Below, piece after piece: positions 916 through 64,000 of a DNA stretch of 64,000 bases (position 1 is the first letter of the stretch; each line of letters starts with the position of its first letter). The notes beneath the pieces were generated by a model that searched no databases, was not told the DNA's origin, and saw only the letters and a program-made list of their open reading frames with translations. Origin of the DNA: Phyllobates terribilis (taxonomy: Eukaryota); contig NW_027362773.1 of assembly GCF_046119375.1 (NCBI RefSeq), forward strand, positions 228,656,001 through 228,720,000, given 5' to 3'. Made by a program: the position numbers and the translations under genes.

Positions 916-1101
916 CAGGGTTCCCCAACTCCAGTCCTCAAGGCCCACCAACAGGTCATGTTTTCAGGATTTCCTTAGTATTACACAGGTGATAATTGCA
1001 TCACCTGCACAGGCAATAATTCCATCACCTGTGCAATACTAAGGAAATCCTGAAAACATGACCTGTTGGTGGGCCTTGAGGACTGAAGTTGGGGAACCCT
1101 G
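916..1101. mobile_element. hAT-type palindromic MITE (186 bp)
   Basis: TIR CAGGGTTCCCCAACT...AGTTGGGGAACCCTG; 8-bp TSD ATCTATAG (908-915, 1102-1109). The homologous site in the downstream PLE repeat (near 6830) is empty and has a single ATCTATAG. Confidence 0.95.
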
Positions 1102-1558: not shown

Positions 1559-1856
1559 TAGTGTTGAGCGAGTATGTTCTATTAACCCTTTTGCCGAGTA
1601 TGCTGGGGCCGAGCTCCGAGTATTTACAGCTGCTCGGTGATAAGGTTAAATCGCTCCCGTGTGCATGATTTGCGACTGTTTGACAGTTTTATTACATGTG
1701 AGGAATGTCTTTCTTACACATTCCTCACATGTGATAAAGCTGTCAAACAGTCGCAAATCATGCACACGGGAGTGATTCAAACACATCACCGAGCAGCTGT
1801 AACTACCCGGAGCTCAGCCAGAGCATACTCGGACAGAACATACTCGCTCAACCCTA
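1559..1856. mobile_element. hAT-type palindromic MITE (TAG...CTA termini, 298 bp) interrupting the PLE ORF near its start
   Basis: TAGTGTTGAGCGAGTATGTTC...AACATACTCGCTCAACCCTA; 8-bp TSD TTAATGAT (1551-1558, 1857-1864). Removing 306 bp restores the frame (GKVND-VFSS). Confidence 0.93.
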
Positions 1857-3574
1857 TTAATGATGTTTTCAGCAGCAATAAACCACAGTCTTATGATCCC
1901 AATGTGAATACTGTGTTAAAAGAGCTTGAACAAGCCATGACACTAAGATTAAAGACATGGTGGGACTCCATAACTTTGCAGCGGTACTTAGATAATGATA
2001 TGATCCCTAGAGGGTTACACCTAAAGAAAATTGCAAATTTTAATTATGGAGAGGAATTCACTGCTGAATGGAACAGCATTCTGTCCCAATCTTCATCTAA
2101 ACTAATGCAACTTATTATTAAGGAAGAAAACAAAAAGCTGAATAAATTGGAAGAACAAATCACCACATTACAGGAGTCACTCAAAGAACATATGAATTCA
2201 ACAAATTTTAAAGAATGGAATGAAAAACTTTCCAAACATATTAATTCTGAGGAGGAAACTATCACTGATGTGAAGAGGAAGACATTTGCTCGTGATTGTG
2301 CATATTATGAGTCTAACCAGGTTTACACCTGGAAATTGCACAAACTGAAGTCAATCCTTAAAAAAACTCCAGCACCAAAATTGAAAACTCCTAATAAGAA
2401 AAACCAGGTTGGATTTCCACAGGCTGATTTGGATACAACAGAAGAATTCACAGATTACTCCTTATCACCTGAACAGTCTCCTGCTGAAAATCATGATATT
2501 TCCAAAAGAAACCTGTCAAAAATCGGGGGGCTTCATAGAGCGGGAAGGAAGCACAAATCCACAAAAAAATCGGAGGTATCCAACCACTAAATCAAAATGT
2601 AAATCAACAATTAGGAGGTTGCTGTAGTTAATCTCTCAGCGATTATTATTTCTCTGTCTCAATTACGGTTATTAAGCAAAGGAAGTAAATTTATTCCTAC
2701 AACTAGAGCAAATCTATTTGAAACTATCAAGGATGTCAACAGATTTGTAAGATCTTTGACAGTCAAGAGACACTTCTTTGCAGAGAACAGGGATAAAGAA
2801 CAACATATTGTGGATCAGTCTTTCTCCACAGCACCTCCCATTGACCTTTCTAGGAATTTACTTGAACAAATATCAGTAAAAACTTTGGAATCTTTGGATG
2901 CTGATTTTGTAACAGATATACCAAATGACTCATTCACAACATTGTTTCCAAATCCACTACTCTATCCATTAGCCTCTAGAACACCTGGGATAGACAGTTT
3001 TCAAAATATAAAAGAGAACTCTTAAAAATACTGGATAGCGAATCAGTCACAATGGATAATTTGACCACCAAAGAACGACAAGCACTGAAATTGTTAAAAA
3101 ACAATGACAATATTATCATTAGCGCGTCCGATAAAAGTGGCTCTCTTGTAATCCTTGATAAGGCATTATACATCAGAGAAGTTAACTCCATGCTATCGGA
3201 TGTAAAAACCTATAGTAAACTAACTGAAGATCCAACCAGTCACGTAAAAGGCCAATTGGATTTTATCCTAAGAGGAGGCTTGCAAAAGGGACTCATTAAT
3301 CAAAAATTGTATGAATATCTATTAACTGAGTCACCACTGTGCCCAATACTGAACGCCCTTCCTAAACTGCACAAAGAAACATTTCCAGCCCCATTGTGGC
3401 TGGCATTGGTTCACTTACTGAAAGAACTGCAGCATGGATTCATCAGCTACTACAGCCTATAGTTTTGGCCACTACAGGATATATCAGGGATAGCAAGCAT
3501 TTATTATCTGCTTTGAAATCTTTTGAGTGGGAATGTAACGATAGATGGGTCACCACAGATATTGTGTCATTATA

Positions 3575-4316
3575 AGGCCCCATCACACTAAGCGATGCAG
3601 CAGCGATCCCGACAACGATACGACCTGTCAGGGATCGTTGCTGCGTCGCTATGTGGTCGCTGGTGAGCTGTCAAACAGGCAGGCTCACCAGCGATCAGGG
3701 GAGCAGCGACATCGTGGAAAGAATCGTACCACGATGTCCTGCTCCGGTTACCAGCCTGCTGCTGAAGCAGGAGCAGGCTCGTAACCATGGTAAACAGCGG
3801 GTTACTAAGTGCGCGTGTGCCCCTAGTAACCCGATGTTTACCATGGATACCACTCTGCTAAGGTGTGCGGGAGGTTACCGTTCACCTTAGCAGAGTCGTA
3901 TCCATGATAAACATCGGGTTACTAGGGGCATACGCGCACTTAGTAACCCGATGTTTATCATGGATAAGACTCTGCTAAGGTGAACGGTAGCCTCCGCGCA
4001 CCGTAGCAGAGTGGTATCCATGGTAAACAGCGGGTTACTAAGTGCGCGCGTGCCCCTAGTAACCCGATGTTTACCATGGATACCAGCCTGATCGTTGGTC
4101 CCGCTGGTCACACACAGCGATGTGTGCTGGCCAGCGGGAGGCCAACGACCAAAAAATGGTCCAGGACACTTTGCAGCGATCAGCGACCTCACAGCAGGGG
4201 CCTGATCGTTGCAAAGTGTCCACATAGCGACATCGCTGGTGAGGTCACTGTTGCGTCACCAAAACCGTGACACAGCAGCGATCTCGCTAGCAAGATCGCT
4301 ATGTGAGACGGGGGCT
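3575..4316. mobile_element. MITE (Harbinger-like, 742 bp) with internal tandem hairpin units, inserted in the PLE RT
   Basis: Termini AGGCCCCATCACAC...GTGAGACGGGGGCT, flanked by ATA/ATA. Removal rejoins the RT motif TDIVSL-YTSIPH. Internal repeats of CCATGGTAAACAGCGGGTTACT...AGTAACCCGATGTTTACCATGG. Confidence 0.85.
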
Positions 4317-5608
4317 ATACACTAGCATCCCGCACCATCTCTCATTACAATCTATCTCCTATCACCTTAACAACACCAATCTCTATACAAAAGAATTAAA
4401 TGAGTTTATACTAAATTTGATACAATTCTTACTTGAAAATAATTTTTTTTACTTCAATGGCGATTTTTTTCTGCAGACCTGCGGTTGCCCCATGGGTGCG
4501 TCTTTTTCCCCATCATTAGCTAATTTATATGTAGCTTGGTGGGAAGTATTTCATATTCACACTCTCAACAATCCTTTTTTGCCTTACATCAGGTGGTACG
4601 CCAGATACATTGATGATGTCATCATGATCTGGCGTACCCCTGATGTCATGAGGCACTGTACATGCTATCCACGTTTCTACAGTTTTTAAATGACAATACA
4701 TTTAATTTACAATTTACCATTAACATTTGTCAAAATGAGACCGTCTTTTTGGACGTATATTTAACTGGAGACAGCAACAATAACTGCATCCACACATGTC
4801 TGTACAGAAAACCAACCAGTGGCAATGCGACGTTGATGGCAAACAGCTGTCATCCAGCACATACTATTAAAAACCTACCACTAGGTGAACACATTAGAGC
4901 CAGACGTCTATGCTCTACGGATGAGAGCTATATTCATGAATGTGACATACTGAAGCGCAGGTTTAAACATAGAGGTTATTCAAATGCACATATTTGCAGA
5001 GCCTGTAATATAGCCTTTCACAAAACACAAACATCTTTATTGGAGAATAACACAGTATGTAAGAGAAATAAACAACAAGTTACTTTCTCCACAGCTTATA
5101 GTACAGACTATCAGGCTATTACAGATTTAATTCGGAAATATGCTTGTATATTACATCAGGACAAAGCACTTCAGAGCATCCTTAAGGAAGGAATTAATTT
5201 TGTTGCTAAAAAATCCCCCAATATAGGAAATTTATTATCTCTAAGTTTTCTGTCCACCAAAAGCCCAAGGTCTGACACATGGCTTCATATTAATGGATCC
5301 TATAAATGTGGAGGCACCAAAGTGTAATATTTGCAAATTTATGTTTACGACCCAAAGATTTACTGACAGTGCAGGCAAAATATATAATATTAAGCACTTT
5401 ATTAATTGCTCTAGTACATATGTCATTTATCAAGCTCTGTGCACATCTTGCAAAAATTTTTATGTGGGTTGCACCAGCCGCATGCTCAAAAGACGCATCG
5501 CAGAGCATGTTACTGGAGCGATTTCGACTCCTAATGCAGGGAGTCGCTCCATGTCAGGGCTCAGCAAACATTTTGCAGATTTTCACTTTGGTGATCTTTC
5601 CACACTTA

Positions 5609-6488
5609 GGCTATGTGCCCACGATGCAGAAATGCTCAGGATTTTTTCCTGAGCGTTTCTGCATCTCCCTGGCAGAAAAAAACGCATGTGGATTGTACAT
5701 GCGTTTTCCTGCCAGGGACATGCGGATGTGAAGCGTTCTTTACTTGCATTTCCGCATGCGGGTTGACAAGCGCTTTCCAAGCGATTTTAGCATCACTTGG
5801 AAAGTGCTTGACAACTTGGTCACACTATATAAATCCATGCAAACGGCATGGATTTATATAGTGTGACCTGAGAGAATGTCAAAAAATAAAAAAATAAATA
5901 TCTACTTACCCTCTGATGGCCCCCGGTGTCCTGCTTCCCTCCGTTCTCCCTTGCCGGCAGCGGTACACTGGAGGACCTGCCGACGTCAGCGTCGCGTGAC
6001 CCGTCACATGACTATGACGTCAGCGCAGGTCCTTCAGTCCATCGCGAACTGCCAGCATGCGAGGAGGAGCGCATCGGGGGCCGCAATAAGGTACTGTAAG
6101 TATATATTTATTTTTTATTTTATTCTTTTTTTTTTACAGTTTTCTATGGTACCCAGGTCCGGAGGAGAGTCTCCTCTCCTCTAGACCTGGGTACCATCCG
6201 CACATTAGAACGCATGGAATGCACATCTACATATACAGTGATGCATAATCCATGCAATCTAATGCAAGTCAATGGCGGCGAAAACGCAGCACTTCCGCAA
6301 AATAATTGGTAGTGCTCCGTTTTTCTCCGCAATGATAATCCGCAGCGGAAATTTCCACAGCATGTGTACAGCACATGCGGATTATCATTGGGGAACATGG
6401 CAGGCCTTCTACCATGCGTTTTTAAGCATTTCTGCTGCGTTTTTGCTGCTGCGGAAACGCTTCAAAAACGCATCGTGGACACACGGCC
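5609..6488. mobile_element. PIF/Harbinger-type MITE (880 bp) inserted in the PLE GIY-YIG domain
   Basis: TIR GGCTATGTGCCCACGATGC / GCATCGTGGACACACGGCC; TSD TTA (5606-5608, 6489-6491). Removal rejoins DLSTL-KLIGIDK. Confidence 0.9.
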
Positions 6489-6843
6489 TTAAGCTTATTG
6501 GTATAGACAAGGTGCAAAGACAAATACTTGGAGGAGATAGAGGCAAGCTTCTCCTAGCCAGAGAAGCCTCATGGATTCTTAAACTTAACTCTCGCATTCC
6601 CAATGGTCTCAATTTTCGCAATGATTTAATGTACATTTTTTGATACTTTTTTCTAATGATGTACTTAATTTGCCAGCATACCATGCACATAAGTTTAATT
6701 TATGTATATTACTGAGCAATTATCCTCAGGAGGATTTTCATTCACTAATGAACTTCCTGTTTTTTGTTGTCTCCACCCTATTTTCTCTTCTCTTTTGTTG
6801 TCAGTCCATATGTATATATATGTCTTTTATCTATAGCAATGTT

Positions 6844-6886
6844 ACCTATGATTAAGAACCCTTGTTTGGTTCGAAACGCGTAAGGT
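6844..6886 (+). ncRNA. Minimal type I hammerhead ribozyme motif of the PLE (A3-U8 core variant)
   Basis: ACCT-ATGATTA-A-GAACC-cttgttt-GGTTC-GAAACGCGTA-AGGT: stem I ACCT/AGGT, stem II GAACC/GGTTC, GAAA, palindromic ACGCGT stem III, GUA cleavage triplet. Confidence 0.72.
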
Positions 6887-7102
6887 CTGCCTTACATATT
6901 GCGCTTTTTTAATGGAACTAATAAAATGGACGTTTTAACTTTACATTTCTTATGATGGATACGGAGAAGGTGTTGGAGTGTTTCTAAACTACTTCCTACT
7001 GCTTCTTATCCCTGGACTTACTACCAAGGATTTCCGTGCACCAGTGGACCCTTATAGCATATGCATGGTAGGCTGAAATTTCCACTTTTTTTCCTTATAT
7101 AA

Positions 7103-7793: not shown

Positions 7794-9145
7794 TAAGTTC
7801 GCTCCAAATTCAGCCATTTCTGGCCTCCATGTCAATTTTGTTGCAGTGTGTTAGTAAAGTTATTGACTCCAGGTCGCTGTGAAAAATAGTAACCTACAGG
7901 CCAGCTATTTAAAACTGTGGTTTTCTGTCACACGTATCACATATCACTGCTGTTCAAATCCAGCCATTTGTAGTGAACGTGTAAAATATCTGTGACGCTC
8001 ACAGCCCTACCCTGAGAGATGGGGGTTACTCGGAACCGGGTCAGATGTTGGGGGTTGCAGTCGTGGCCTGGACCCGGCCCGTGCCCAGGGCCGTCAGACT
8101 AAAAGGTTGTAATGGGCTTTCAGGGTTGAGTGGTATTTTCTGACTACGCTACCTGTGGTGCCTGGTGATTCGCCACCAGCGCTGTGGCAGTCCTCTGAGG
8201 CAGGATGTAGTGGCAGCAGAAGATGGTACTACTCCCCACAGGCGGAGCAAGGCCTCAGAGCAGAGAAGAAGGATCAGGGGGGTCGTAGTGGGTGGTGCGG
8301 TGCGGTGTCGCGCTGAAATTAGGGACCAGAGGCAATGGATGCAGTCTTCCAAGCTTTACTCACGTTGTTAGGTGTCAGCTGCAAGGCTTCTCCTTGCTCC
8401 TCATGGCGCGCTGCGGCCACCAGGAAGGGGTTCAGCACACTCCGGGTAGTTCGGGTGCATCGATCAGGACCCCCCGCACCAGAGTGTTCCTAGACTTTCC
8501 CACTAGGTCCGCTCCTGTCCGTATGTGGTACGTGTACTAAGGCCGGGTCTCCCTCTGGACTATGCACAGAACAAGGGTATGGGTGGCGACTCCGCTTCGT
8601 CCGTTACACGGTGGGATCCACTGAGCCTCCGGGCTTCCCTGACTAAGACTTGAAGTGACAGAGTCAGATATCGGGGGCCGGTACCACTTTTGCTGCAGGA
8701 ATCCCTCTGACTAGGCCAGAATAGTTAGGACAGGTGGCGTATGCCGCTCCGTCTGCATCCCCCTGGGATCCTTTTGCCCGGGGAGCTGGTCTCCTCTGCT
8801 CCCCTCCAGGCCTTCTTAGGTAGGGACCTTGACCGGGTAGAGACAGCCGTTAACTCTATCCCGCTCCTCGTCTCAAGGCCAGAGCACGAGGACCGTGTAA
8901 CTTCAATCAGCTGCAGGTTCACACAGAAAGCCACGTTCAGTGATGAAGATCACAATCAAAGACCATAAGCCCGGGGGGCGTGGCCTAGCTCTTGATGTGA
9001 GAGGTCGGGTGGCAGTGCCTCTCCACCACCATTAGCTTCAATTATCCTGCACAGAGCCCGAACCAGCCAAATCCCTTATCAGGAACTACTGTCTGAGGGT
9101 CCCGGGAGTCAGAGGCGAGCTTCTGCCAGACTCAGAGAGTCCAAC

Positions 9146-10216
9146 ATGGGCCGCAAAAGGCAGAAGGATGCCGGGGCCTGCAGCAGTGCCTCAGCCCAAG
9201 ATGGCACCGAGACAGAGGAAGAGGCGGGAAGGAGGAACACAGCCTATGCACGGAGGCTGGAGGCTTCAGCACGGCTGCACAGGTATGCGAGGGGCATGAA
9301 GGCAGATGAAGAAGGAAGTGAAGGCAGTGAGAAGCATGGAGATGAGGAGGAAGATGGTGAGGAGATGCCTGTGCCGGTGCTACATAATGAACAGCAGGAG
9401 GAGGGGGATGGTGACACTGTGCTGGCAGCTGAAAGTTCAGATGAGGCAGAGCCGACTCTGCGAGATGTATTCCAGGCTGTCTTATACTGCAAGACTGCTT
9501 TAACTGCTCTGACAAAGCAGGTGAATGGTCTGAAAGCCGACATGGGAGGCATTGAGGCTTCTATGCAGAAAGTTACAGCCAGATTGACTGAGGTGGAGGG
9601 CAGAGTTGGTGTAACAGAAGATCATTTAACCTCAGTGCAAAAGACGCAGCAACAGCACACTCAGAGGATCACGGTAGTGGCTAACAAAAACGATGACCTG
9701 GAAAACCGGTCACGCAGGAACAATTTGCGTATTGTGGGCATCCCTGAAAGAGCTGAGGGTGCTGACCCCACGACCTTTGTTGAAACCTGGCTGCTGGGAA
9801 AGTTTGGGTCTAATATCCTGTCGAGGGTGTTTGCTGTGGAGCGTGCCCATCAAGTGCCCATGAGACCCCCAGTGCCTGGAGAGGGCCCTCGTACGATGTT
9901 AGCCAGAATCCTGAACTGCAGAGACCGGGACACTATCTTACGTAAGGCCAGAAAATTGACAGATCTTACCCTGGAGGGCAAACGCATTGAAATATACCCG
10001 GATTACTCGGCTGAGGTGCAAAAGCTGCGGCTACGGTATGGTGAAGTGAAGAAACAGCTCCGCTCTTTGAATGTGAAATACTCTACAATTTATCCTGCCA
10101 AATTAAGAGTGGAAGCCTTTGGAAAGGTCAATTTTTTCCCGTCACCTGTAGAGGCCGCCTCGTGGTTGGAGCGGAACCGGAGCAAATTGAGAGAAGCTGA
10201 GGACTCGGCACGGTGA
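9146..10216 (+). CDS. ORF1: L1 ORF1p (acidic N-terminus, coiled coil, RRM, CTD), 356 aa
   Basis: LENRSRRNNLRIVGIPE, ERAHQV and YPAKLRV motifs; position upstream of ORF2. Confidence 0.96.
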   Translation: MGRKRQKDAGACSSASAQDGTETEEEAGRRNTAYARRLEASARLHRYARGMKADEEGSEGSEKHGDEEEDGEEMPVPVLHNEQQEEGDGDTVLAAESSDEAEPTLRDVFQAVLYCKTALTALTKQVNGLKADMGGIEASMQKVTARLTEVEGRVGVTEDHLTSVQKTQQQHTQRITVVANKNDDLENRSRRNNLRIVGIPERAEGADPTTFVETWLLGKFGSNILSRVFAVERAHQVPMRPPVPGEGPRTMLARILNCRDRDTILRKARKLTDLTLEGKRIEIYPDYSAEVQKLRLRYGEVKKQLRSLNVKYSTIYPAKLRVEAFGKVNFFPSPVEAASWLERNRSKLREAEDSAR

Positions 10217-10641
10217 ATGCACGACCCTGCTATCCTGACCACTGGACAGGGTTGTGGCTCTGCATTGCTCTGCGAAACCGCAGAGGAGGGGGAGAAACCC
10301 CCGCTGGGATCTACGTTTTATAGTTTTATAGTTAATTTGTTTGATTAATGGTTCGGGACTATGCATACTATTGATTATGTGGTGGAGAGACTGCCAATGC
10401 TGGAGGAGGACACGGCGCATGTTGATATGCGGTATACTACGATGTTGCTCAGGTTCTTTGAGCTCCCACTCTCACGTTGGGAAGAGAGTGACAAGAGAAG
10501 GGTGGGGGGAGGGGGTGGGGGGAGGTGGATGGGTTGGATTTGCGGGAAAATGGGGTTTCTTATGCTGTTTGACCTGGTATGCTTGGGAACAAAATGGAAA
10601 GATGTTACTTGATGATGGTGGATTGTTTTTTCTAATGCACA

Positions 10642-13600
10642 ATGAGTAACCGTACGGTTCGGATTTTAAGTTGGAATGTACGTGGTATATCTGACAGGAT
10701 TAAGAGGGCAGCAGTTCTGAATCACATCAGATCTTGTGATCCTATGATTGCGTGCTTACAGGAGACCCATCTCACTAGAGATACTAGGCACTGGCTATCG
10801 AGAGGGTGGATGTTAAAGACATATCATTCCACTTATTCCTCGTACTCCAGGGGGGTGTCAGTCCTAATACACAAAAACGCACATTATGAAGAGCTGGCAG
10901 TGCAAGTAGACAGTGAAGGGCAGTATGTATGGATTGCGTGCAGATTGTATGGATACAAAATGATTTTAGTGGCTTTATATATCCCTCCGCCTTATTCTAA
11001 AAAGGAACTTCAAGCAGTAATGGACTTGACGGCCAGATGGGGGGAGGCTCCGATGTTGATTATGGGAGATGTTAACAACACCATGAATGATTACTGGGAT
11101 AAAGTACATCCGGCAGGTATGGAAGCTGGACGGGACGGAATGACTGCATTTGGCACCTACGTGGGGGAGCTGGGGCTGGTGGATCTGTGGAGAGTACGAA
11201 ATGAGGGTAAGAGGACCTTCTCGTGTCATTCGGCTACACACGGAACACTGTCAAGGATAGACCTGGCTTTTGGGGATACTGCTATGGATGGGATGGTTGG
11301 GGAGGTGGAATACCTACAGAGGACTCTATCGGATCATAGTCCTATGGTTGTCACGCTTCTAGTGGGATCTGCTCAGGGTCAGAGGGGAGGTTGGCGTCTT
11401 CACCCGACGTGGCTTAAAGTGGTGGATATGGGTGGCATAACCAAAGAACTAGAGCACTTCTTCCAAGTGAATGAAGGGAGTGCTGAGGCCACAGTGGTGT
11501 GGGAGGCTATGAAGGCATTTACGAGGGGACTCTTTATAAGTGAGATCTCACGGTGTAAGACCAAAACTAAATTGGCAGATCAACAAATAAAGGATGACTT
11601 GACAAGGGCAGAGGCAGACATGATTTTGGCGCCAACGAGTGTAGCTCACAATAGACTAAAATTGGCACAGGAGGCAGTTAATAAACTGCACATGATGCAA
11701 GCTGAGAGGAAAAGGGCATTTCAGCAAGCCCAATTCTTTGAGGAAGGAGAGAGAGTGGGTCACTTGTTGGCGGTGATATCTGCGGCACAGAGGGAGTCTT
11801 CCAGGGTGTACAGGTTGAGAGACCAAACGGGGACGACTCTGACAGACACAAAGGACATATTGGAGGTCTTCAAGGAATATTACATGGCACTGTACAATTC
11901 AAGAGTACGGGACACGGAGGGGGCCGTAGAGGAATTTTTGGAAGGCATCTCACTGTCTAAATTGTCTGAGGAAGATAGGATGAGGTTGGATGAACCTGTG
12001 AGTGTGGAGGAGGTGGAATGTGCAATTCTGTCTATGCCCAATAACAAATCACCGGGTGCTGATGGTCTACCTGGGGAGGTGTACAGGGAGCTGGTGGAAC
12101 TGCTAGCTCCAAAATTGAAATCTGTGTTTGATGAGGCTTTGGTGAAGGGGGCGTTACCGAGATCATTGGAGGAAGCGGTGATAGTGGTTCTGCCAAAGGA
12201 GGGGAAAGATCCCATGGATGCGGAGTCGTATAGGCCCATATCGTTGTTGACAACGGATGTCAAAATACTCGCTAAGATCCTGGCCACCCGGCTCACCGGG
12301 GTTGCGCATACTGTTATTCACGAGGACCAGTCGGGCTTTATGCCCAACCGCTCCACGGCTGTTAACTTGAGAAGATTATTTCTTAATATGCAGCTGCCTG
12401 CTGATAATGGTGGCGGGAGAATAGTGATGTCATTGGACGCTAGAAAAGCATTTGATAGCGTGGAATGGAAATATTTATGGAAAATCATGGAAATAATGGG
12501 ATTTGGCCCCGCATTCATGGCCTGGGTGAAGTTATTGTACTCATCCCCAAGGGCGGTAGTTAAGGTGAATGGTGAACGGTCCGGGATGTTTGACTTACAT
12601 AGGGGCACAAGGCAGGGGTGCCCGCTGTCCCCGCTATTGTTTGCGGTGGCAGTGGAGCCCCTGGCGGCCAAAATAAGAGCTGAGAGAGGAGTGGTCGGAT
12701 TTAAATTTGGGAGGCTGGAAGAAAAAATATCACTGTATGCCGATGACATCCTGTTATTTCTGGAAAATGCAGGAGAGACATTGGGGTGCACGATGGATGT
12801 AATTAAACACTTTGGGAGCATTTCGGGACTGGAGATAAACTGGCACAAGTCTTATGTCATGGCTGTAGATAGACCAATAAAAGCGGAGGAGATAGATGAG
12901 AGGGGGAAGCAGCTCCAGCTGGTTTCACAATTTAAATACCTTGGGATATGGGTGGAGCTTCCATTGACACGATTCACGGATCTGAATTTAGTTCCTCTGC
13001 TAGAGAAATTTAAAAAGAAAATAGGCGCATGGTGCCAATTGGCTTTGACGGTGACGGGTAGAACTAACCTGATTAAGATGGTCCTTATGCCACAACTAAT
13101 GTACGTTTTGCACAACTCACCGATATGGCTACCAAAAAAACGGTTTCAGGGTATTGATTCTCTCTTCAGATCCTTGATATGGGGCAAGAGGCAGGCAAGG
13201 ATTAAATTGGGAACGCTGCAAAATGGGAAGGAGGAGGGAGGATTGGCCGCACCCAATCCCTGGGTCTATTTCTTGGCAGTACAGGGCCAGCATGTCAGGG
13301 GATGGAGAGAACCCGATTGTGGAGGGGCAGCTTGCCGGGTGCTGGTACATGTGTCGGGGAGACGCCCACTGGTCCAGGCTTTAGAGGATGGTACCTTTAA
13401 GAAATTGGGAGCAATATATCCTACCTTAGGCTTGACTCAGAAGGTATGGGACACTATTAAAAAGATCAGGGGGGTGGACGGGCTGACTAAGTACTCACCG
13501 GTGTTGGGCAATGAACATCTGCCGGAACTTAATAAGCTGTGTCAAATGGGCAATTGGAAGGCGCAAGGAGTGAGATATGTGTGCCAGCTGCAGAGTGGAA

Positions 13601-14397
13601 CGGACCTGAAGACCTTTGAGAAATTGAGAGAAGAATTTGATTTGCCTTTGGTATGGAGATTTCAATACTATAGGCTTCGACATGCTTGGAGGGCACAGTG
13701 TGGATTGGGAGCCATGACGGTTCAGGGTGACATTGTACTAGACTCTGTGTGTATGAAGGGAGGGACGAGGGGAGTCATATCGAGCTTATATCATGACCTA
13801 CTGCACTCCTATCTGGGGGGAAATCACTTCATTGCAAAGAGTAAATGGGAAAGGGAGGTGGGTACCCTCACAACAGAACAATGGGAGGCGATTCTAGAAT
13901 ATGTCCCGAAGATCTCTTTAAGCGAGCAGGCACGGATCTCCCAATTATACATAATACATAGGACATACAAAACACCGCTGCGCCTGTACAAGGCGGGCTT
14001 GAGGGGAGATTCCAGTTGCCCTAGATGTGGCACGGACCAGGCCGGACTGCTACACATGCTATGGTCATGCCCGCGGCTAGTGGCTTATTGGTTGGTCGTT
14101 GTTAACAAAATTGAGAGGGCTTATACATGTACAATTGACAGAAACCCGGTGCTGTGTGTTTTGGGGGAGGTGGATGGAATACCTGTCTCAGAACATTACA
14201 AAGTGGCGATAGCGCGATTGCTATATGTGGCACGCAAACTAATAGCACGAAAATGGACACATTCGGAACCCCCCACTAGGAGGGAATTTATTGCTCAGAC
14301 ACGTACGGTAATGCATTTAGAGGAAAGCATTTACAGGCGGAGGCATGGAGAGAGAACTTTTGGGAAAATATGGTCCGCATGGATGGCGGTAATATGA
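10642..14397 (+). CDS. ORF2: L1 ORF2p (APE endonuclease, reverse transcriptase, C-terminal cysteine-rich domain), 1251 aa
   Basis: ILSWNVRG, LQETH, GDVN, SDH; YRPISLL, LDARKAFD, QGCPLSPLLF, YADD, YLG; CPRC...HMLWSC. No stops. Confidence 0.98.
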   Translation: MSNRTVRILSWNVRGISDRIKRAAVLNHIRSCDPMIACLQETHLTRDTRHWLSRGWMLKTYHSTYSSYSRGVSVLIHKNAHYEELAVQVDSEGQYVWIACRLYGYKMILVALYIPPPYSKKELQAVMDLTARWGEAPMLIMGDVNNTMNDYWDKVHPAGMEAGRDGMTAFGTYVGELGLVDLWRVRNEGKRTFSCHSATHGTLSRIDLAFGDTAMDGMVGEVEYLQRTLSDHSPMVVTLLVGSAQGQRGGWRLHPTWLKVVDMGGITKELEHFFQVNEGSAEATVVWEAMKAFTRGLFISEISRCKTKTKLADQQIKDDLTRAEADMILAPTSVAHNRLKLAQEAVNKLHMMQAERKRAFQQAQFFEEGERVGHLLAVISAAQRESSRVYRLRDQTGTTLTDTKDILEVFKEYYMALYNSRVRDTEGAVEEFLEGISLSKLSEEDRMRLDEPVSVEEVECAILSMPNNKSPGADGLPGEVYRELVELLAPKLKSVFDEALVKGALPRSLEEAVIVVLPKEGKDPMDAESYRPISLLTTDVKILAKILATRLTGVAHTVIHEDQSGFMPNRSTAVNLRRLFLNMQLPADNGGGRIVMSLDARKAFDSVEWKYLWKIMEIMGFGPAFMAWVKLLYSSPRAVVKVNGERSGMFDLHRGTRQGCPLSPLLFAVAVEPLAAKIRAERGVVGFKFGRLEEKISLYADDILLFLENAGETLGCTMDVIKHFGSISGLEINWHKSYVMAVDRPIKAEEIDERGKQLQLVSQFKYLGIWVELPLTRFTDLNLVPLLEKFKKKIGAWCQLALTVTGRTNLIKMVLMPQLMYVLHNSPIWLPKKRFQGIDSLFRSLIWGKRQARIKLGTLQNGKEEGGLAAPNPWVYFLAVQGQHVRGWREPDCGGAACRVLVHVSGRRPLVQALEDGTFKKLGAIYPTLGLTQKVWDTIKKIRGVDGLTKYSPVLGNEHLPELNKLCQMGNWKAQGVRYVCQLQSGTDLKTFEKLREEFDLPLVWRFQYYRLRHAWRAQCGLGAMTVQGDIVLDSVCMKGGTRGVISSLYHDLLHSYLGGNHFIAKSKWEREVGTLTTEQWEAILEYVPKISLSEQARISQLYIIHRTYKTPLRLYKAGLRGDSSCPRCGTDQAGLLHMLWSCPRLVAYWLVVVNKIERAYTCTIDRNPVLCVLGEVDGIPVSEHYKVAIARLLYVARKLIARKWTHSEPPTRREFIAQTRTVMHLEESIYRRRHGERTFGKIWSAWMAVI

Positions 14398-43093: not shown

Positions 43094-44574
43094 ATGACAA
43101 CTTATTCAATATGATGACCTAATGTTATCAAATTCTGTGTCGTACCTCTGGGTTCAAAATGTTCACTATACCCCTTGATAAAATCCTGGAGGGGTGTAGC
43201 TTCCAAAATGGAGTCACTGGGGGGAGGGTGGGGTGGTTTCCACTATTTAGGCACATCAGGGGCTCCCCAAACGCAACCTGTTACCCTTGTGAAAATGCAA
43301 AATTGGGGGCTGAAAAACATTTTTGTTGAAAAAATGTGAAAATTGTATTTTTACGGTTCAATGTTATAAACTTCTGCGAAGCACCTGGGGGTTCAGGGTG
43401 CTCATCACACATCTAGATAAGTTCCCTAAGGGGTCTAGTTTCCAAAATGGTGTCACTTGTGGGGGGTTTCCACTGTTTAGGCACATCAGGGGCTCCCCAA
43501 ACACAACATGGTGTCCGCTAATTAGTCAAGCAAATTTTACATTCAAAAAGTCAAATGGCACTCCTTCCCTTCCAAACCCAGCCGTGCGCCCAAACAGTGC
43601 TTTTTGCCCACATATGGGGTATCTGCATGCTCAGGGGAAATTGCACAACAAATTTTGGGGTCCATTTTTTCCTGTTACCCCTGCGAAAATAAAAAAATTT
43701 GGGTCTAAAGTAACATTTTTGTGAAAAAAGTTAAAAGTTCATTTTTTTCCTCCACACTCCAAAAATTCCTGTGAAGCACCTGAAGGGTTAATAAACTTCT
43801 TGAATGTGGTTTTGAGCACCTTGAGGGTGCAGTTTTTAGAATGGTGTCACTTTTGGGTATTTCTGTCATAAAGGCCCCTCAAAGTCACGTCAAATGTGAT
43901 GTGGTCTCTAAAAAAATGGTTTTGTAAATATTGTTGTTAAAATGAGAAATCGCTGGTCAACTTTTAACCCTTATAGCTCCCTACTTAAAAAAAAAATTGT
44001 TCCAAAATTGTGCTGATGCAAAGTAGGCATGTGGGAAATGTTATTTATTAACTCTTTTCTGTGACATATCTCTTTGATTTAAAGGCATAAAAATTTTCAA
44101 AATTTTCGCCAAATTTCTGATTTTTTTCACAAATAAACGCAAGTGATATCGAAGAAATTTTACCACTATCATGAAGTACAATATGTCACGAAAAAACAGT
44201 CTCAGAATCAGGGTGATCCGTTGAAGAGTTCCAGAGTAATTACCTCATAAATTGACAGTGGTCAGAATTGTAAAAATTGGACTAGTCATTAACGTGCAAA
44301 CCACCCTCTGGGGTAAAGGGGTTAAAGGGAAAAATCTCACAATATTTACATTAACAATTATTAATTTTAGAACAATGTACAAATAATTTTTGTTTTTATC
44401 GTTTATACTGTTTCTTCATCACTGGGGGCAGCCATTTTTATCTGCTTGTGTTTGTTTGAGCACGACGCTTACAGCAAATATGGCAGCCTCAGGCCACAGG
44501 AAATTGTGGAAGGCGTCCGACCTCGCCTGTCTTGTGGCTGCCACAACTGTGGGGGAGCTAGAAGCCATTTAATT

Positions 44575-51982: not shown

Positions 51983-53612
51983 CAGTACAGACCAAAAGTT
52001 TGGATACACCTTCTCATTTAGAGATTTTTCTGTATTTTCATGACTATGAAAATTGTATATTCACACTGAAGGCATCAAAACTATGAATTAACACATGTGG
52101 AATTATATACTTAACAAAAAAGTGTGAAACAACTGAAAATATGTCTTATATTCTAGGTTCTTCAAAGTAGCCACCTTTTGCTTTGATGACTGCTTTGCAC
52201 ACTCTTGGCATTCTCTTGATGAGCTTCAAGAGGTAGTCACCGGAAATGGTTTTCACTTCACAGGTGTGCCCTGTCAGGTTTAATAAGTGGGATTTCTTGC
52301 CTTATAAATGGGGTTGGGACCATCAGTTGTGTTGTGCAGAAGTCTGGTGGATACACAGCTGATAGTCCTACTGAATAGACTGTTAGCTGCTTTTTTCTTG
52401 CAATAATACAAATTCTAAGAAAAGAAAAACGAGTGGCCATCATTACTTTAAGAAATGAAGGTCAGTCTGTCCGAAAAATTGGGCAAACTCTGAAAGTGTC
52501 CCCAAGTGCAGTTGCAAAAACCATCAAACGCTACAAAGAAACTGGCTCACATGAGGACCACCCCAGGAAAGGAAGACCAAGAGTCACCTCTGCTTCTGAG
52601 GATAAGTTTATCCGAGTCATCAGCCTCAGAAATCGCAGGTTAACAGCAGCTCAGATTAGAGACCAGGTCAATGCCACACAGAGTTCTAGCAGCAGACACA
52701 TCTCTTCAACAACTGTTAAGAGGAGACTTTGTGCAGCAGGCATTCATGGTAAAATAGCTGCTAGGAAACCACTGCTAAGGACAGGCAACAAGCAGAAGAG
52801 ACTTGTTTGGGCTAAAGGACACAAGGAATGGACATTAGACCAGTGGAAATCTGTGCTTTGGTCTGATGAGTCCAAATTTGAGATCTTTGGTTCCAACAAC
52901 CGTGTCTTTGTGCGACTCAGAAAAGGTGAACGGATGGACTCTACATGCCTGGTTCCCACCGTGAAGCATGGAGGAGGAGGTGTGATGGTGTGGGGGTGCT
53001 TTGCTGGTGACACTGTTGGGTATTTATTCACAATTGAAGGCATCCTGAACCAGCATGGCTACCACAGCATCTTGCGGTGGCATGCTATTCCATCCGGTTT
53101 GCGTTTAGTTGGACCATCATTTATTTTTCAACAGGACAATGACCCCAAACACACCTCCAGGCTGTGTAAGGGCTATTTGACCAAGAGGGAGAGTGATGGG
53201 GTGCTACACCAGATGACCTGGCCTCCACAGTCACCAGACCTGAACCCAATCGAGATGGTTTGGAGTGAGCTGGACCGCAGATTGAAGGCAAAAGGGCCAA
53301 CAAGTGCTAAGCATCTCTGGGAACTCCTTCAAGATTGTTGGAAGACCATTTCCGGTGACTGCCTCTTGAAGCTCGTCAAGAGAATGCCAAGACTGTGCAA
53401 AGCAGTCATCAAAGCAAAAGATGGCTACTTTGAAGAACCTAGAATATAAGACATATTTTCAGTTGTTTCACACTTTTTTGTTAAGTATATAATTCCACAT
53501 GTGTTAATTCATAGTTTTGATGCATTCAGTGTGAATGTACAATTTTCAAAGTCATGAAAATACAGAAAAATCTTTAAATGAGAAGGTGTGTCCAAACTTT
53601 TGGTCTGTACTG
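51983..53612 (+). mobile_element. Full-length Tc1-related DD38E (Intruder-type) transposon
   Basis: TA TSD; about 200-bp TIRs CAGTACAGACCAAAAGTTTGG / CCAAACTTTTGGTCTGTACTG; 38 residues between the second D (QQD) and E (NPIE). Confidence 0.93.
52433..53449 (+). CDS. DD38E transposase; 338 uninterrupted codons but the native start is lost through a micro-inversion
   Basis: Paired-like [30 protein letters not shown]. The N-terminal ARKKQL is found on the opposite strand at 52387-52414. Confidence 0.8.
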   Translation: MAIITLRNEGQSVRKIGQTLKVSPSAVAKTIKRYKETGSHEDHPRKGRPRVTSASEDKFIRVISLRNRRLTAAQIRDQVNATQSSSSRHISSTTVKRRLCAAGIHGKIAARKPLLRTGNKQKRLVWAKGHKEWTLDQWKSVLWSDESKFEIFGSNNRVFVRLRKGERMDSTCLVPTVKHGGGGVMVWGCFAGDTVGYLFTIEGILNQHGYHSILRWHAIPSGLRLVGPSFIFQQDNDPKHTSRLCKGYLTKRESDGVLHQMTWPPQSPDLNPIEMVWSELDRRLKAKGPTSAKHLWELLQDCWKTISGDCLLKLVKRMPRLCKAVIKAKDGYFEEPRI

Positions 53613-55477
53613 TATATATATATATGTGTGTGTTAATATCTTTAAAAACATTTTTTTCTCGCTGTACACTTGCTTCAGTAGTCTCCATGGGAGACTAGAA
53701 GCTGCGATCGTCTGATCTCCAGTGTTACATATAGCAGGGCTTCCTTCCTGCAGAGATCTGTCTATCGCTGGCAGTAGGTGGAGGGGAAGCTGCCAGGGAC
53801 CCACCTGTCTGACTAGTCTACAGCACAGTCTGGTCCTCAGCTGCTAATAAAGTGTTTTTCTTTGAAATGCCACAGTTTTGGAGTCAGATATACCTGGCTG
53901 GGATCATACAGCTGGTGCTTGATAAATGCAGCCCACAGTTTGGGCAGCATTTATCAGGTTCACTTTGGGCCACTTTCAGACACGTCAGTGTCTCCAGTTC
54001 GTGTGGTTACCGTTTCCTGACGTACCGTAGACACATACACACTTAGACCCATTCAAATCAATGGGTCTGTGCACAAGTCAGTGTGTTTCCAGAGACCGTG
54101 TGTCCATGGGCAAGACATGTTGACATGTCTGTTTTTTTTTGCGCTGCATGTGCCGTAAAATGTCCCACACATCCATGTGTCATCAATGTGACTCGTACCG
54201 GCGCCTGGGAATCAGCTGTACAGTTAGCGCTGTTCCTAAGCGCCGGGTGCTGAACGCTGCCTTCATCATTGTCCCCTGTCGGCGCTGCGATCAGTGCGAG
54301 CAAGGGACAATGGTGAGAGTAGTATTCTACTCCAGCTGTGTCCTGGGGTAAAAATAAGAATAGAATAAAAAAAATTGTTATACTCACCTGTCCGAAGATG
54401 TCCCCTGCTGTAATCCACCTGACCGCTCACGCCAAGGAGCCGGGGAGAATGACTCGTTCCAGCAAGCGGGCCCCGGAGCTGCGCTGAGCTCAGTGAGTGA
54501 GTGACAGGACACCGTTAGCTGTAGGAGTCAGTCTTCCCGGCTCCTCGGCATGAGCGGTCAGATATATTACAGCGGGGGACACTTAAAATAGGTGAGTATA
54601 AAGAATTTTTTCATTTTATTCTTATTTTTACAGTTGGAGACAGTGGGAGCAGAATACTATTGTCGTCATTAACCCATGCTGGTGCTGATCGCAGCGCCGG
54701 CAGGGGACTATGATGAGCGCAGCGTTCAGCACCCGGCGCTTGGGAACCCCACTAAGTGTACCGCTGATTCCCAGGCGCCGGAACATGTGATCCTGATGTT
54801 GCCACACAGGTGCAGTCGGAAACGGATATCTCCTGTACTGGCTTTTCTGCTACCACAAATATCAGGACTTGTGAAACCTGCCTTAAATAAATTTATTCAT
54901 CTGTATGTTCACAAGCGGCACTTTAGCCCCACCACATGTGCCTTTTCTTAAACTTGTAATGGACCTGAAATGCTGTATATGACCATATGTGAATACATGG
55001 ATGTACTAAGTACATGTGCATCACATACAGATATGTACACAGATACATGGACATAACACACATAGAAACACACACACATATATGCACACAAATTACACAT
55101 GCACTTACCCTCTCTGCAGATGATGCGTGCGGCTTACCAGCTTCTTCATCCTGTACCCTGTACTTATGTCTTCTCTGTGGTGCAGCCTTCCCTTCACCTG
55201 GGGCCCGACTGCAGAGCTCTCCTGCTGTAATTGCAGGGCAGAAGGCAGGAGAGGGAGAGCGGAGTATTATTATACAGAGCGGGGTGGGGGCCGGGAGAGC
55301 TGTGACCATACTGTAAGCTGCTTCTCTGCTCTGCTGGAACCCCGAGCTGGTGGGCTTATCCTCCTCTTCTGCTCTAACAGAGCACTGAGAGCAGAGATAG
55401 ATGCTGGGAAAGGAAGTTGTTTCTGCTCTCTCTGGAGTCACGACAAACCAGTAGTATGGATAAAAATGTAGGTTTAT

Positions 55478-55519
55478 TGTTTACGCGTTTCAGAGTCCAC
55501 CGACTCCTTCCTCAGGATA
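55478..55519 (-). ncRNA. Minimal type I hammerhead ribozyme motif (inverted copy, damaged stem I)
   Basis: TATC-CTGAGGA-A-GGAGTC-ggtg-GACTCT-GAAACGCGTA-AACA on the minus strand. Confidence 0.65.
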
Positions 55520-55532
55520 ACCATACATAACC

Positions 55533-55574
55533 TGTCCTGAGGAAGGAGTCGGTGGACTCTGAAACACGTAGACA
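55533..55574 (+). ncRNA. Minimal type I hammerhead ribozyme motif
   Basis: TGTC-CTGAGGA-A-GGAGTC-ggtg-GACTCT-GAAACACGTA-GACA. Confidence 0.75.
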
Positions 55575-56307
55575 ATAAACCTACATTTTTATACATACTA
55601 ATGGTTTGTTGTGACTCCACAGAGCGCAGAAACAACTTCCTTTCCCAGCATCTATCTCTGACATATCCATAGGAAGCTGCAGCATCTGGAGTCCAGGCTT
55701 TACAGGTATTGTATCCCAAACAACCCTACTAGGTGAGCAGTTTTTAATACTTCTGTACCATTTATTAATTGGATAAGACCCTATTGCGCTCTTGCATTTT
55801 TTCATAGAGCACTGAGACAGAGGCATCCTCTACGTGGTGGACACAGTGCAGCCAGAGTAGCAGAGGTAGATCCTTCTCCCGACTCCGGGCCCACGAAATC
55901 CTCCGCTGGTCCTGACGGAGCCTGGTTGTTTTCAACTGTAACTTCATCCTAAGGATGCAGATACTGTTGAAATTCTGATGAAGGTGTGCTGTTACACACT
56001 GAGCCCCCCTGTCTCATGGACCCCATAGCAGCTGTGTGGGCTGCTGCCATGGACGGTATGCCCCTGCTTCCATACATTTACATACCTCCCAACTTTTGGA
56101 GAACAGAAAGAGGGACACATCATGTGGCGTGCATAGTGTGCCGCTGAAAATTTTGGCCACGCCACTGGTCACACCCCAATCAAAGTCCATTCACCATTAT
56201 CTTTCTCCTCCGGCAGGAGGAGTTGTCAGAGGAGCGCTGATAATGAGGGGCATTCAGCAGACGCCCAAGACTGCAGGGTGCAGACCCAAATCCAGGACAT
56301 TTGGGGC

Positions 56308-57109: not shown

Positions 57110-58459
57110 AATCAACAAATGAAAGTCAGACATTGCTTTTCAACCCTGCTTTCACAGAATTTTAAAAAAAATTAAACCTATGAAATTGGCCTGGACAGAA
57201 ATGATGGTTCTTGTTAACTTAATATTTTGTTGAACAACCTTTTGAGGTAATCACTGCAATCAAACAATTCCTGTAACTGTCAATGAGACTTCTGCACCTC
57301 TCGACAGGTATTTTGGCCCTCTTCTCATGAGCAAACTGCTCCAGTTGCCTCGTGTTTGAAGGTTGCCTTTTCCAGACGGCATGTTTCAGCTCTTTCCAAA
57401 GATGCTCAATAGGATTTAGGTCAGGGCTCATAGAAGGCCACTTCAGAATAGTCCAATGTTTTCCACTTAGCCATTCTTGGGTGTTTTTAGCTGTGTGTTT
57501 TGGGTCATTATCCTGTTGTAAGACCCATGACCTGCGACTGAGACCGAGCTTTTTGACAATGGGCAGCACATTTCTCTCTAGAATGCCGTGATAGTCTTGA
57601 GATTTCATTATACCCTGCACAGATTCAAGACACCCTGTGCCAGATGCAGCAAAGCAGCCCCAGAACATAACAGCCTCCTCCTTTAGCAAATTCCAGTCTG
57701 GTTTTTTTTTTATGATTTTGTTTTCAACAATGGTGTTCTCCTTGGTCGTTTCCCATGAAGTCCACTTTGGATCAAACAACGACGGATGGTGCGATCTGAC
57801 ACTGATGTCCCTTGAGCTTGAAGTTCACCTTTAATCTCTTTAGAAGTTTTCCTGGGCTGTTTTGTTACCATTCATATTATCCGTCTCTTTGATTTGTCAT
57901 CAATTTTCCTCCTGCGGCCACGTCCAGGGAGGTTGGCTACAGTCCCATGGATCTTAAATTTCTGAATAATACGTGCAACTGTAGTCACAGGAACATCAGG
58001 CTGCTTGGAGATGGTCTTCTTACCTTTTAACATGCTTGTCTATAATTTTCTTTCTAATCTCCTGAGACAACTCTTTCCTTTTCTTCCTATGGTCCATGTT
58101 GAGTGTGGTACACACCATGTCACCAAACAGCACAGTGAGTATCTGTAGCCCTATATACAGGCCGATTGACTGATTACAAGATTGTAGACACCTGTGATGC
58201 TAATTAGTGGACACAACTTGATTTAACATGTCCCTTTTGTCACATTATTTTCAAGGGTACAATAATTTCTGTCCAGGCCTATTTCATGAGTTTAATTTTT
58301 TTTCAATTCTGTGGAAGCAGGGTTGAAAAGCAATGTCTGACTTTCATTTGTTCATTTCCATAAATTTTTTATTTATTATTACTTTTGTCAAGTTATTTCT
58401 GTGACCATTGTGGGTTTTTCTTTCATTAAACGAGGGGTACCAACAATTTTGACCATGTG
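57110..58459 (-). mobile_element. Tc1 (DD34E) transposon, decayed and internally deleted (transposase 58097 to 57219)
   Basis: MDHRKKRKELSQ start; [19 protein letters not shown](34)..SPDLNPIE; inverted terminal blocks at about 57110-57210 and 58255-58360. Confidence 0.88.
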
Positions 58460-63132: not shown

Positions 63133-64000
63133 CAGTGCTCAAAAAAATAAAGGGAACACTTAAACAACAGAATATAACTCTACAAGTAAATCAAACTTCT
63201 GTGAAATCAAACTGTCCACTTAGGAAGCAACACTGACTGACAATCAATTTCACATGCTGTTGTGCAAATGGAATAGACAATAGATGGAAATTATTGGCAA
63301 TTATCCAGACACCCTCAATAAAGGAGTGGTTCTGCAGGTAGGGACCACAAACCACATGTCAGTACCAATGCTTTCTGGCTGATGTTTTGGTCACTTTTGA
63401 ATGTTGGTTGTGCTTTCACACGTGTGGTAGGATGAGACGGACTCTACAACCCACAGAAGTTGCTCAGGTAGTGCAGTTTATCCAGGATGGCACATCAATG
63501 CGAGCTGTGGCAAGAAAGTTTGCTGTGTCTGTCAGTGTAGTGTCCAGAGGATGGAGGCACTACCAGGAGACAGGCCAGTACACCAGGAGACGTGGAGGGG
63601 GCCGTAGGAGGGCAACAACCCAGCCGCAGGACCGCTACCTCTTCCTTTGTGCAAGGAGGAACAGGAGAAGCACTGCCAGAGCCTTGCGGAATGACCTCCA
63701 GCAGGCTACAAATGTGCATGTGTCTGCACAAAAGGTTAGAAACCGACTCCATGATGGTGGTATGAGGGCCCGATGTCCACAGATGGAGGCCTCCATGTGC
63801 CCGACAGAGGTAGCTTGACTGCCATTAGGTACCGAGATGAGATCCTCAGACCCCTTGTCAGACCATATTCTGGTGCGGTTGGCCCTGGGTTCCTCCTAAT
63901 GCAGGACAATGCCATACCTCATGTGGCTGGAGTGTGTCAGCAGTTCCTGCAAGATGAAGGCATTGAAGCTATGGACTGGCCTGCCCGTTCCCCAGGCCTG
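63133..64000 (+). mobile_element. Tc1-family transposon, internally deleted, running off the window end
   Basis: TA|CAGTGCTCAAAAAAATAAAGGGAACAC; ATG at 63432 ([20 protein letters not shown]); jump near 63790 to RYRDEILRP..MQDNA.PH..MDWPARSP. Confidence 0.88.

Follow-up and report, generated by a model that had tools for sequence, protein, structure and literature searches.

An A3-U8 hammerhead motif in the terminal repeats of a putative Neptune-type Penelope-like element family from the frog Phyllobates terribilis

The window analysed here is a stretch of 64,000 nucleotides of the Phyllobates terribilis genome (assembly GCF_046119375.1, contig NW_027362773.1, positions 228,656,001 to 228,720,000 of the forward strand). 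Towards its left end lie the remnants of a Penelope-like element (PLE) with a minimal hammerhead motif in each terminal repeat, termed copy A in the upstream repeat and copy B in the downstream one. The features of the element are as follows.

566-1376, + strand: upstream terminal repeat, with an insertion at 916-1101 and its left end outside the window
916-1101, no strand assigned: inverted-repeat insertion, its 8-bp target duplication lying at 908-915 and 1102-1109 and its right end 16 nt 5' of the copy A hammerhead
1117-1159, + strand: hammerhead motif, copy A, with A3 at 1121, U8 at 1126 and the palindrome broken at 1150 and 1153
1586-5652, + strand: Penelope-like ORF, frameshifted and insertion-ridden, with reverse transcriptase (RT), Cys linker and GIY-YIG endonuclease
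5609-6488, no strand assigned: TTA-flanked inverted-repeat insertion splitting the endonuclease, with the same right end in copy A at 564
6490-7101, + strand: downstream terminal repeat, comprising the endonuclease gene end (stop at 6641-6643), the hammerhead and a tail
6839-6897, + strand: possible distal part of helix I, in which 6839-6843 would pair with 6893-6897, requiring A at 6843, the family-majority letter
6844-6886, + strand: minimal type I hammerhead motif, copy B, with A3 at 6848, U8 at 6853 and a predicted cut at 6882/6883
6876-6881, + strand: helix III strand of 6 nt, complementary to itself, through which two copies are predicted to join as a dimer; the majority state in contigs

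The two motif copies are 5727 nt apart, in direct repeats flanking the RT and GIY-YIG remnants. This bears out the sequence-only reading, which had placed them in pseudo-LTR copies, and presence of the motif in both terminal repeats is characteristic of PLE minimal hammerheads. The downstream repeat matches 566-925 (94%) and 1102-1376 (92%). A Pfam scan of eight pieces gave domain matches for two: an RT remnant at 4291-4686 (PF00078, E 3.6e-5) and a GIY-YIG remnant (PF01541, E 4.3e-4), both below the curated Pfam cut-off. A Cys-x4-Cys-x2-Cys linker precedes the endonuclease when read across a frameshift near 5300-5340, and A3 of copy B lies 205 nt 3' of the endonuclease stop. Elements of the Neptune clade encode an RT followed by a C-terminal GIY-YIG domain with a CX2-5CxxC linker, the linker also being present in the Nematis clade (PMC8557442). 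The window element has this domain order and this linker, the latter common to Nematis, and on its layout it appears to be a decayed Neptune-type PLE. At E up to 0.001, a 96-aa piece of the endonuclease has 619 relatives; ten were looked up, and the four of these that carry names are all frog proteins, in keeping with a frog host. These Neptune-like PLE proteins (CAJ0923541.1, XP_075706647.1, XP_066446889.1 and XP_056390398.1) share the endonuclease with Cys linker and are 43-48% identical to the window endonuclease across the matched stretch. A search with the 227-aa RT-linker piece covered 407 longer candidates as well as viral contigs and returned no relatives from either.

The TTA-flanked insertion is 86.5% alike between the repeats (5609-6488 against 1-564), compared with 95.6% for the adjoining endonuclease end, a lower likeness hinting at gene conversion. 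The insertion at 916-1101 has CAGGG ends, and by its hallmarks we take it to be hAT-like. Two long palindromic insertions within the PLE ORF (1545-1870 and 3771-4106) are the source of weak Rfam microRNA-family matches. Elsewhere in the window, an L1-like element at 8996-14397 is apparently intact, with open frames of 406 and 1253 aa, and frames at 52379-53449, 57219-57824 and 63342-63818 are, judging by their motifs, presumably Tc1/mariner-like transposases.

In copy B, stem I consists of 4 bp (6844-6847 paired with 6883-6886) and is followed by the core box at 6848-6854 and one extra A at 6855. Stem II has 5 bp (6856-6860 with 6868-6872), of which G10.1-C11.1 is the first; GAAA occupies 6873-6876, and A17 lies at 6882. 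Nine of the eleven core positions are canonical; the other two, C3 and G8, are replaced by A and U, so the literal CUGANGA/GAAA/NUH consensus fails. The replacements are Watson-Crick complementary in both window copies and would be expected to pair. The sequence-only reading had described an A3/U8 core instead of CUGANGA in both copies, which holds at 6844-6886 and at 1117-1159. It had also described stems I and II and a palindromic stem III as kept in both: the stems are, while the palindrome is kept in copy B and lost in copy A, where 15.2 (1150) and 16.2 (1153) are both A. These two letters and one in loop 2 are the only differences between the copies (3 of 43), core and stems being the same.

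The window copies amount to one observation, because both derive from an already broken source sharing the endonuclease insertion, and their use as two independent witnesses was dismissed for that reason. They are decayed examples and likely poor cutters. Given the common insertion, the lack of helix III in copy A and a cut site predicted to be buried in copy B, they are weak evidence.

The exact motif pattern occurs twice in the window against 0.00 expected (100 shuffles), and a chance origin of the pattern is ruled out. A descriptor leaving positions 3 and 8 free, designed post hoc once the motif had been seen, gave four window matches, in three of which positions 3 and 8 are Watson-Crick complementary; in the shuffled window (n = 40) it gave a mean of 0.025 matches and 0 Watson-Crick matches. 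Matches at 43310 (+) and 56229 (-), with C3-A8 and poor stems, were dismissed as chance. Rfam covariance models yielded 28 matches at E up to 10, none to hammerhead families; A3-U8 alone does not explain this, because a canonical-core copy at 55533 was also missed. The possible distal helix I overlaps a rival hairpin at 6880-6895 and has a predicted probability of 0.02 in the monomer. Directly 5' of the motif, at 6822-6836, a run of pyrimidines that closes with AG resembles a splice acceptor; in a Drosophila virilis PLE an intron ends at helix I (PMC4209133).

The state of positions 3 and 8 across the family was read from contigs of four of 23 listed public runs, aligned to 6760-6990 at 80% likeness, with letters listed from 3%. 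Run X1 (DNA) supplied 191 contigs with a summed depth of 6648 over 6848-6855, and run X7 (DNA, from a different study) 212 contigs with a summed depth of 3238. The longest single pieces in these runs have depths of 3-55; that the summed depth far exceeds them points to many copies, the depth itself not being a copy number. At 6848 and 6853 no alternative letter reaches 3% in either run, which means that A3 and U8 each make up at least 97% of contig depth and necessarily occur together in at least 94% of it. The proposal that A3-U8 belongs to the master element is upheld by the absence of C at 6848 and of G at 6853 at 3% or above among the 191 + 212 contigs. Neither run shows a family composed mostly of CUGANGA copies. 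A3-U8 is family-wide and not private to the locus.

The method is able to detect small variants, as is clear from its detection of G12 to A at 6873 (2.9% in X1 and 4.5% in X7) and C15.2 to T at 6877 (6.3% and 9.0%), both CG sites. The contig set comprises copies at least 80% alike, contigs drop rare variants, and no X1 or X7 contig spans the full 6760-6990. The family majority differs from the window copy in having A at 6843 (99% and 86%), C at 6862 (81% and 80%) and G at 6900 (100% in both). The family majority retains stems I and II as well as the palindrome, the palindrome variant at 6877 reaching only 6-9%; the palindromic helix III typical of PLE motifs is thus found in copy B and the family majority and not in copy A. 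The single aligned contig of run X13, a presumed RNA run, keeps A3 and U8 and has A at 10.1, and run X9 gave 0 contigs aligned to 6760-6990, neither outcome having a bearing on expression; the family pattern had 0 matches in metagenome contigs. Most other motif positions, loop letters included, are likewise without a variant at 3%. A3-U8 is for this reason to be read as the state of an amplified master, selection not being implied thereby, and invariance within one family is not covariation. Some contig matches start at 6844 and 6846 with unlike upstream sequence (2 and 3 in X1, 3 and 5 in X7; agreement 0.57-0.67); these starts may mark where copies have their 5' ends, or may belong to sister families that begin at the hammerhead.

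C3-G8 relatives occur both in the window and beyond it. A second family in the window has a C3-G8 hammerhead at 55533-55574 (+) and, inverted to it, a partner at 55478-55519 (-). It agrees with copy B in layout, in the extra A, in A17 and, for one copy, in the palindrome. The two lie at 55400-55660, one C3-G8 minimal hammerhead in each of two inverted arms of ~125 nt; one copy has lost the palindrome, the other the first stem I pair, and both have G10.1-U11.1. No PLE ORF of at least 110 aa is found near these arms. An endonuclease alignment search returned one viral, 0 prokaryote-genome and six metagenome loci, and a hammerhead is present in two of these seven (L002 and L003). Both carry the same C3-G8 sequence, in the same architecture and from a distantly related element, and therefore count as one outgroup only. 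As far as these sequences indicate, the contrast of C3-G8 with A3-U8 exists between families and not within one.

Przybilski and Hammann reportedly found in 2007 that any Watson-Crick 3-8 pair was active in two ribozymes, a pyrimidine at 3 being preferred in one. C3 and G8 are described as pairing in the active fold (PMC3884650). Natural 3-8 covariation, with U3-A8 named and covaried pairs active in vitro, was reported by Perreault et al. 2011 (PMC3088659), who cite Przybilski and Hammann for that activity; the covariation is shared with the present motif, which has a purine at 3 and a pyrimidine at 8 in place of U3-A8. A close likeness is to the minimal type I hammerheads that Cervera and De la Pena described in 2014 from metazoan PLEs (PMC4209133). 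These too lie in the terminal repeats, have a short helix I, one more base following A9, G10.1-C11.1 and a palindrome at 15.2-16.2 that carries a small insert, and include variants with a swapped 3-8 pair. The swap there is U3-A8, with about 1,300 matches in Schistosoma PLEs, as against A3-U8 here. Among the 56 representatives in Fig. S3 of that paper, 53 have C3-G8, two U3-A8, one U3-G8 and none A3, an absence partly built in by the CUGANGA descriptor; minimal PLE motifs are described there as cleaving weakly and in multimers only.

The Poseidon PAc hammerhead of Anolis carolinensis (PMC11167929) is likewise from a PLE, of another clade than the window element, and its natural core is C3-G8. 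Its 3-8 pair has been tested, and the engineered C3G/G8C exchange, giving G3-C8, partly rescues it. This motif is described as not cutting in the absence of protein and as dispensable when insertion is assayed in vitro, and RNA-seq showed no ends at its site (PMC11167929). When pairwise mutants of a type III hammerhead were scanned completely, rescue is described for the G-C swap only, all other double mutants in the region being low (PMC9901934). Published descriptors demand CUGANGA (PMC4209133, PMC8557442), so published searches would miss an A3-U8 family, as the sequence-only reading had anticipated. No natural A3-U8 hammerhead was found in the searchable text of the literature or in the PMC3088659 supplements, and one may have been reported earlier. 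On sequence comparison the anatomy appears to be that of a minimal PLE hammerhead, and A3-U8 in a Penelope hammerhead appears to be new, 3-8 swaps as such (U3-A8) being already known.

Folding was predicted with an energy model that ignores core tertiary contacts. For the 43-nt copy B, the active-fold homodimer is placed at -21.5 kcal/mol, two monomers at -19.2 and the best dimer fold at -22.6; A:B and A:A dimers reach -9.9, with two helix III mismatches each. With majority letters and flanks (6834-6905) the balance is less favourable, the active dimer, at -26.1, being less stable than two monomers at -30.4 or the best dimer fold at -35.6. Pair probabilities for helices I and II are 0.97-1.0 both in copy A and in the majority sequence. 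When copy B is folded together with its flanks, helix I has a probability of only 0.05 and the cut site is predicted to be buried in a hairpin (0.95). In the monomer an A3:U16.1 pair is predicted at 0.96-0.98, with A17 bulged, compared with 0.000 for pairing of position 3 with U16.1 in the C3 family. This predicted misfold resembles the C3-G17 trap that has been described (PMC3884650).

We favour, at a probability of roughly 0.6, the reading that this is the terminal-repeat hammerhead of an amplified Neptune-type PLE family, with A3-U8 in nearly all copies, likely as a compensatory swap, and with putative weak self-cleavage kept. In this proposal A3 would pair with U8 as C3 does with G8, and two copies joined through the palindrome would form helix III. 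Cleavage would follow A17 (6882), and would probably be weak and dimer-assisted, with help from a protein also probable. An element protein might undo the predicted A3:U16.1 misfold of the monomer, and the cut would trim a tandem-copy precursor RNA. The only altered core positions are 3 and 8, which are mutually complementary, and stems I and II are intact, all of which supports a compensatory swap. Against it, the route from C3-G8 passes via an unpaired intermediate, and a single master fixes neutral letters family-wide too. The lone G-C rescue in the type III scaffold (PMC9901934), the behaviour of the anole motif (PMC11167929), the predicted A3:U16.1 pairing and the lower predicted stability of the flanked active dimer also weigh against it.

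An alternative that we consider unlikely is that the ribozyme died in the master and that A3 and U8 are unrelated changes carried along by transposition needing no cleavage. Hammerhead mutants are described as having no effect on insertion in vitro (PMC11167929), Naiad PLEs thrive without canonical hammerheads (PMC8557442), an A-U pair gave no rescue in one scaffold (PMC9901934), and the predicted A3:U16.1 trap would also suit a dead ribozyme. However, the sole two altered core positions are ones that pair with each other and are complementary, an outcome with a probability of 0.006 for two random changes among 11 core positions (calculated post hoc, for a single event). The family majority, moreover, keeps stems I and II and the palindrome, which argues against decay in the master. 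Local decay fares far worse: that A3-U8 is private to this locus and was spread by local duplication would agree with the recent common source of the window copies, which share an insertion, but it is contradicted by contigs of two studies in which C at 6848 and G at 6853 stay below 3%, and is highly improbable.

It is also conceivable, though in our judgement improbable, that the fold persists because it serves some purpose other than catalysis, such as binding a protein or marking a reverse-transcription boundary, and the 3-8 pair for its shape. The protein dependence of the anole motif (PMC11167929) would be in keeping with this, as would the loose contig ends at 6844 and 6846, which fall at the 5' edge of stem I, away from the cut site. 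Those ends may, however, come from sister families that differ upstream, and the retention of G5, the U8 backbone position, G12 and the NUH site, as catalysis would require, argues against a purely non-catalytic role. A bolder extension of that reading is tentative, and on balance doubtful: an active frog family may have evolved and amplified a purine-3/pyrimidine-8 A3-U8 pair, the first family-wide case in a eukaryote, with A3:U16.1 as an off switch released only by dimer or protein, and with more such families hidden from CUGANGA surveys.

The effect of the finding is limited in that 3-8 swaps are already known in nature and in vitro. Poor cutting of PLE hammerheads in vitro, and the dispensability of one for insertion, bear on whether selection acts on cutting at all. 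A double transversion that would restore the 3-8 pair family-wide is the kind of evidence that would speak for selection on the active fold, and descriptor searches undercount hammerhead motifs of this sort.
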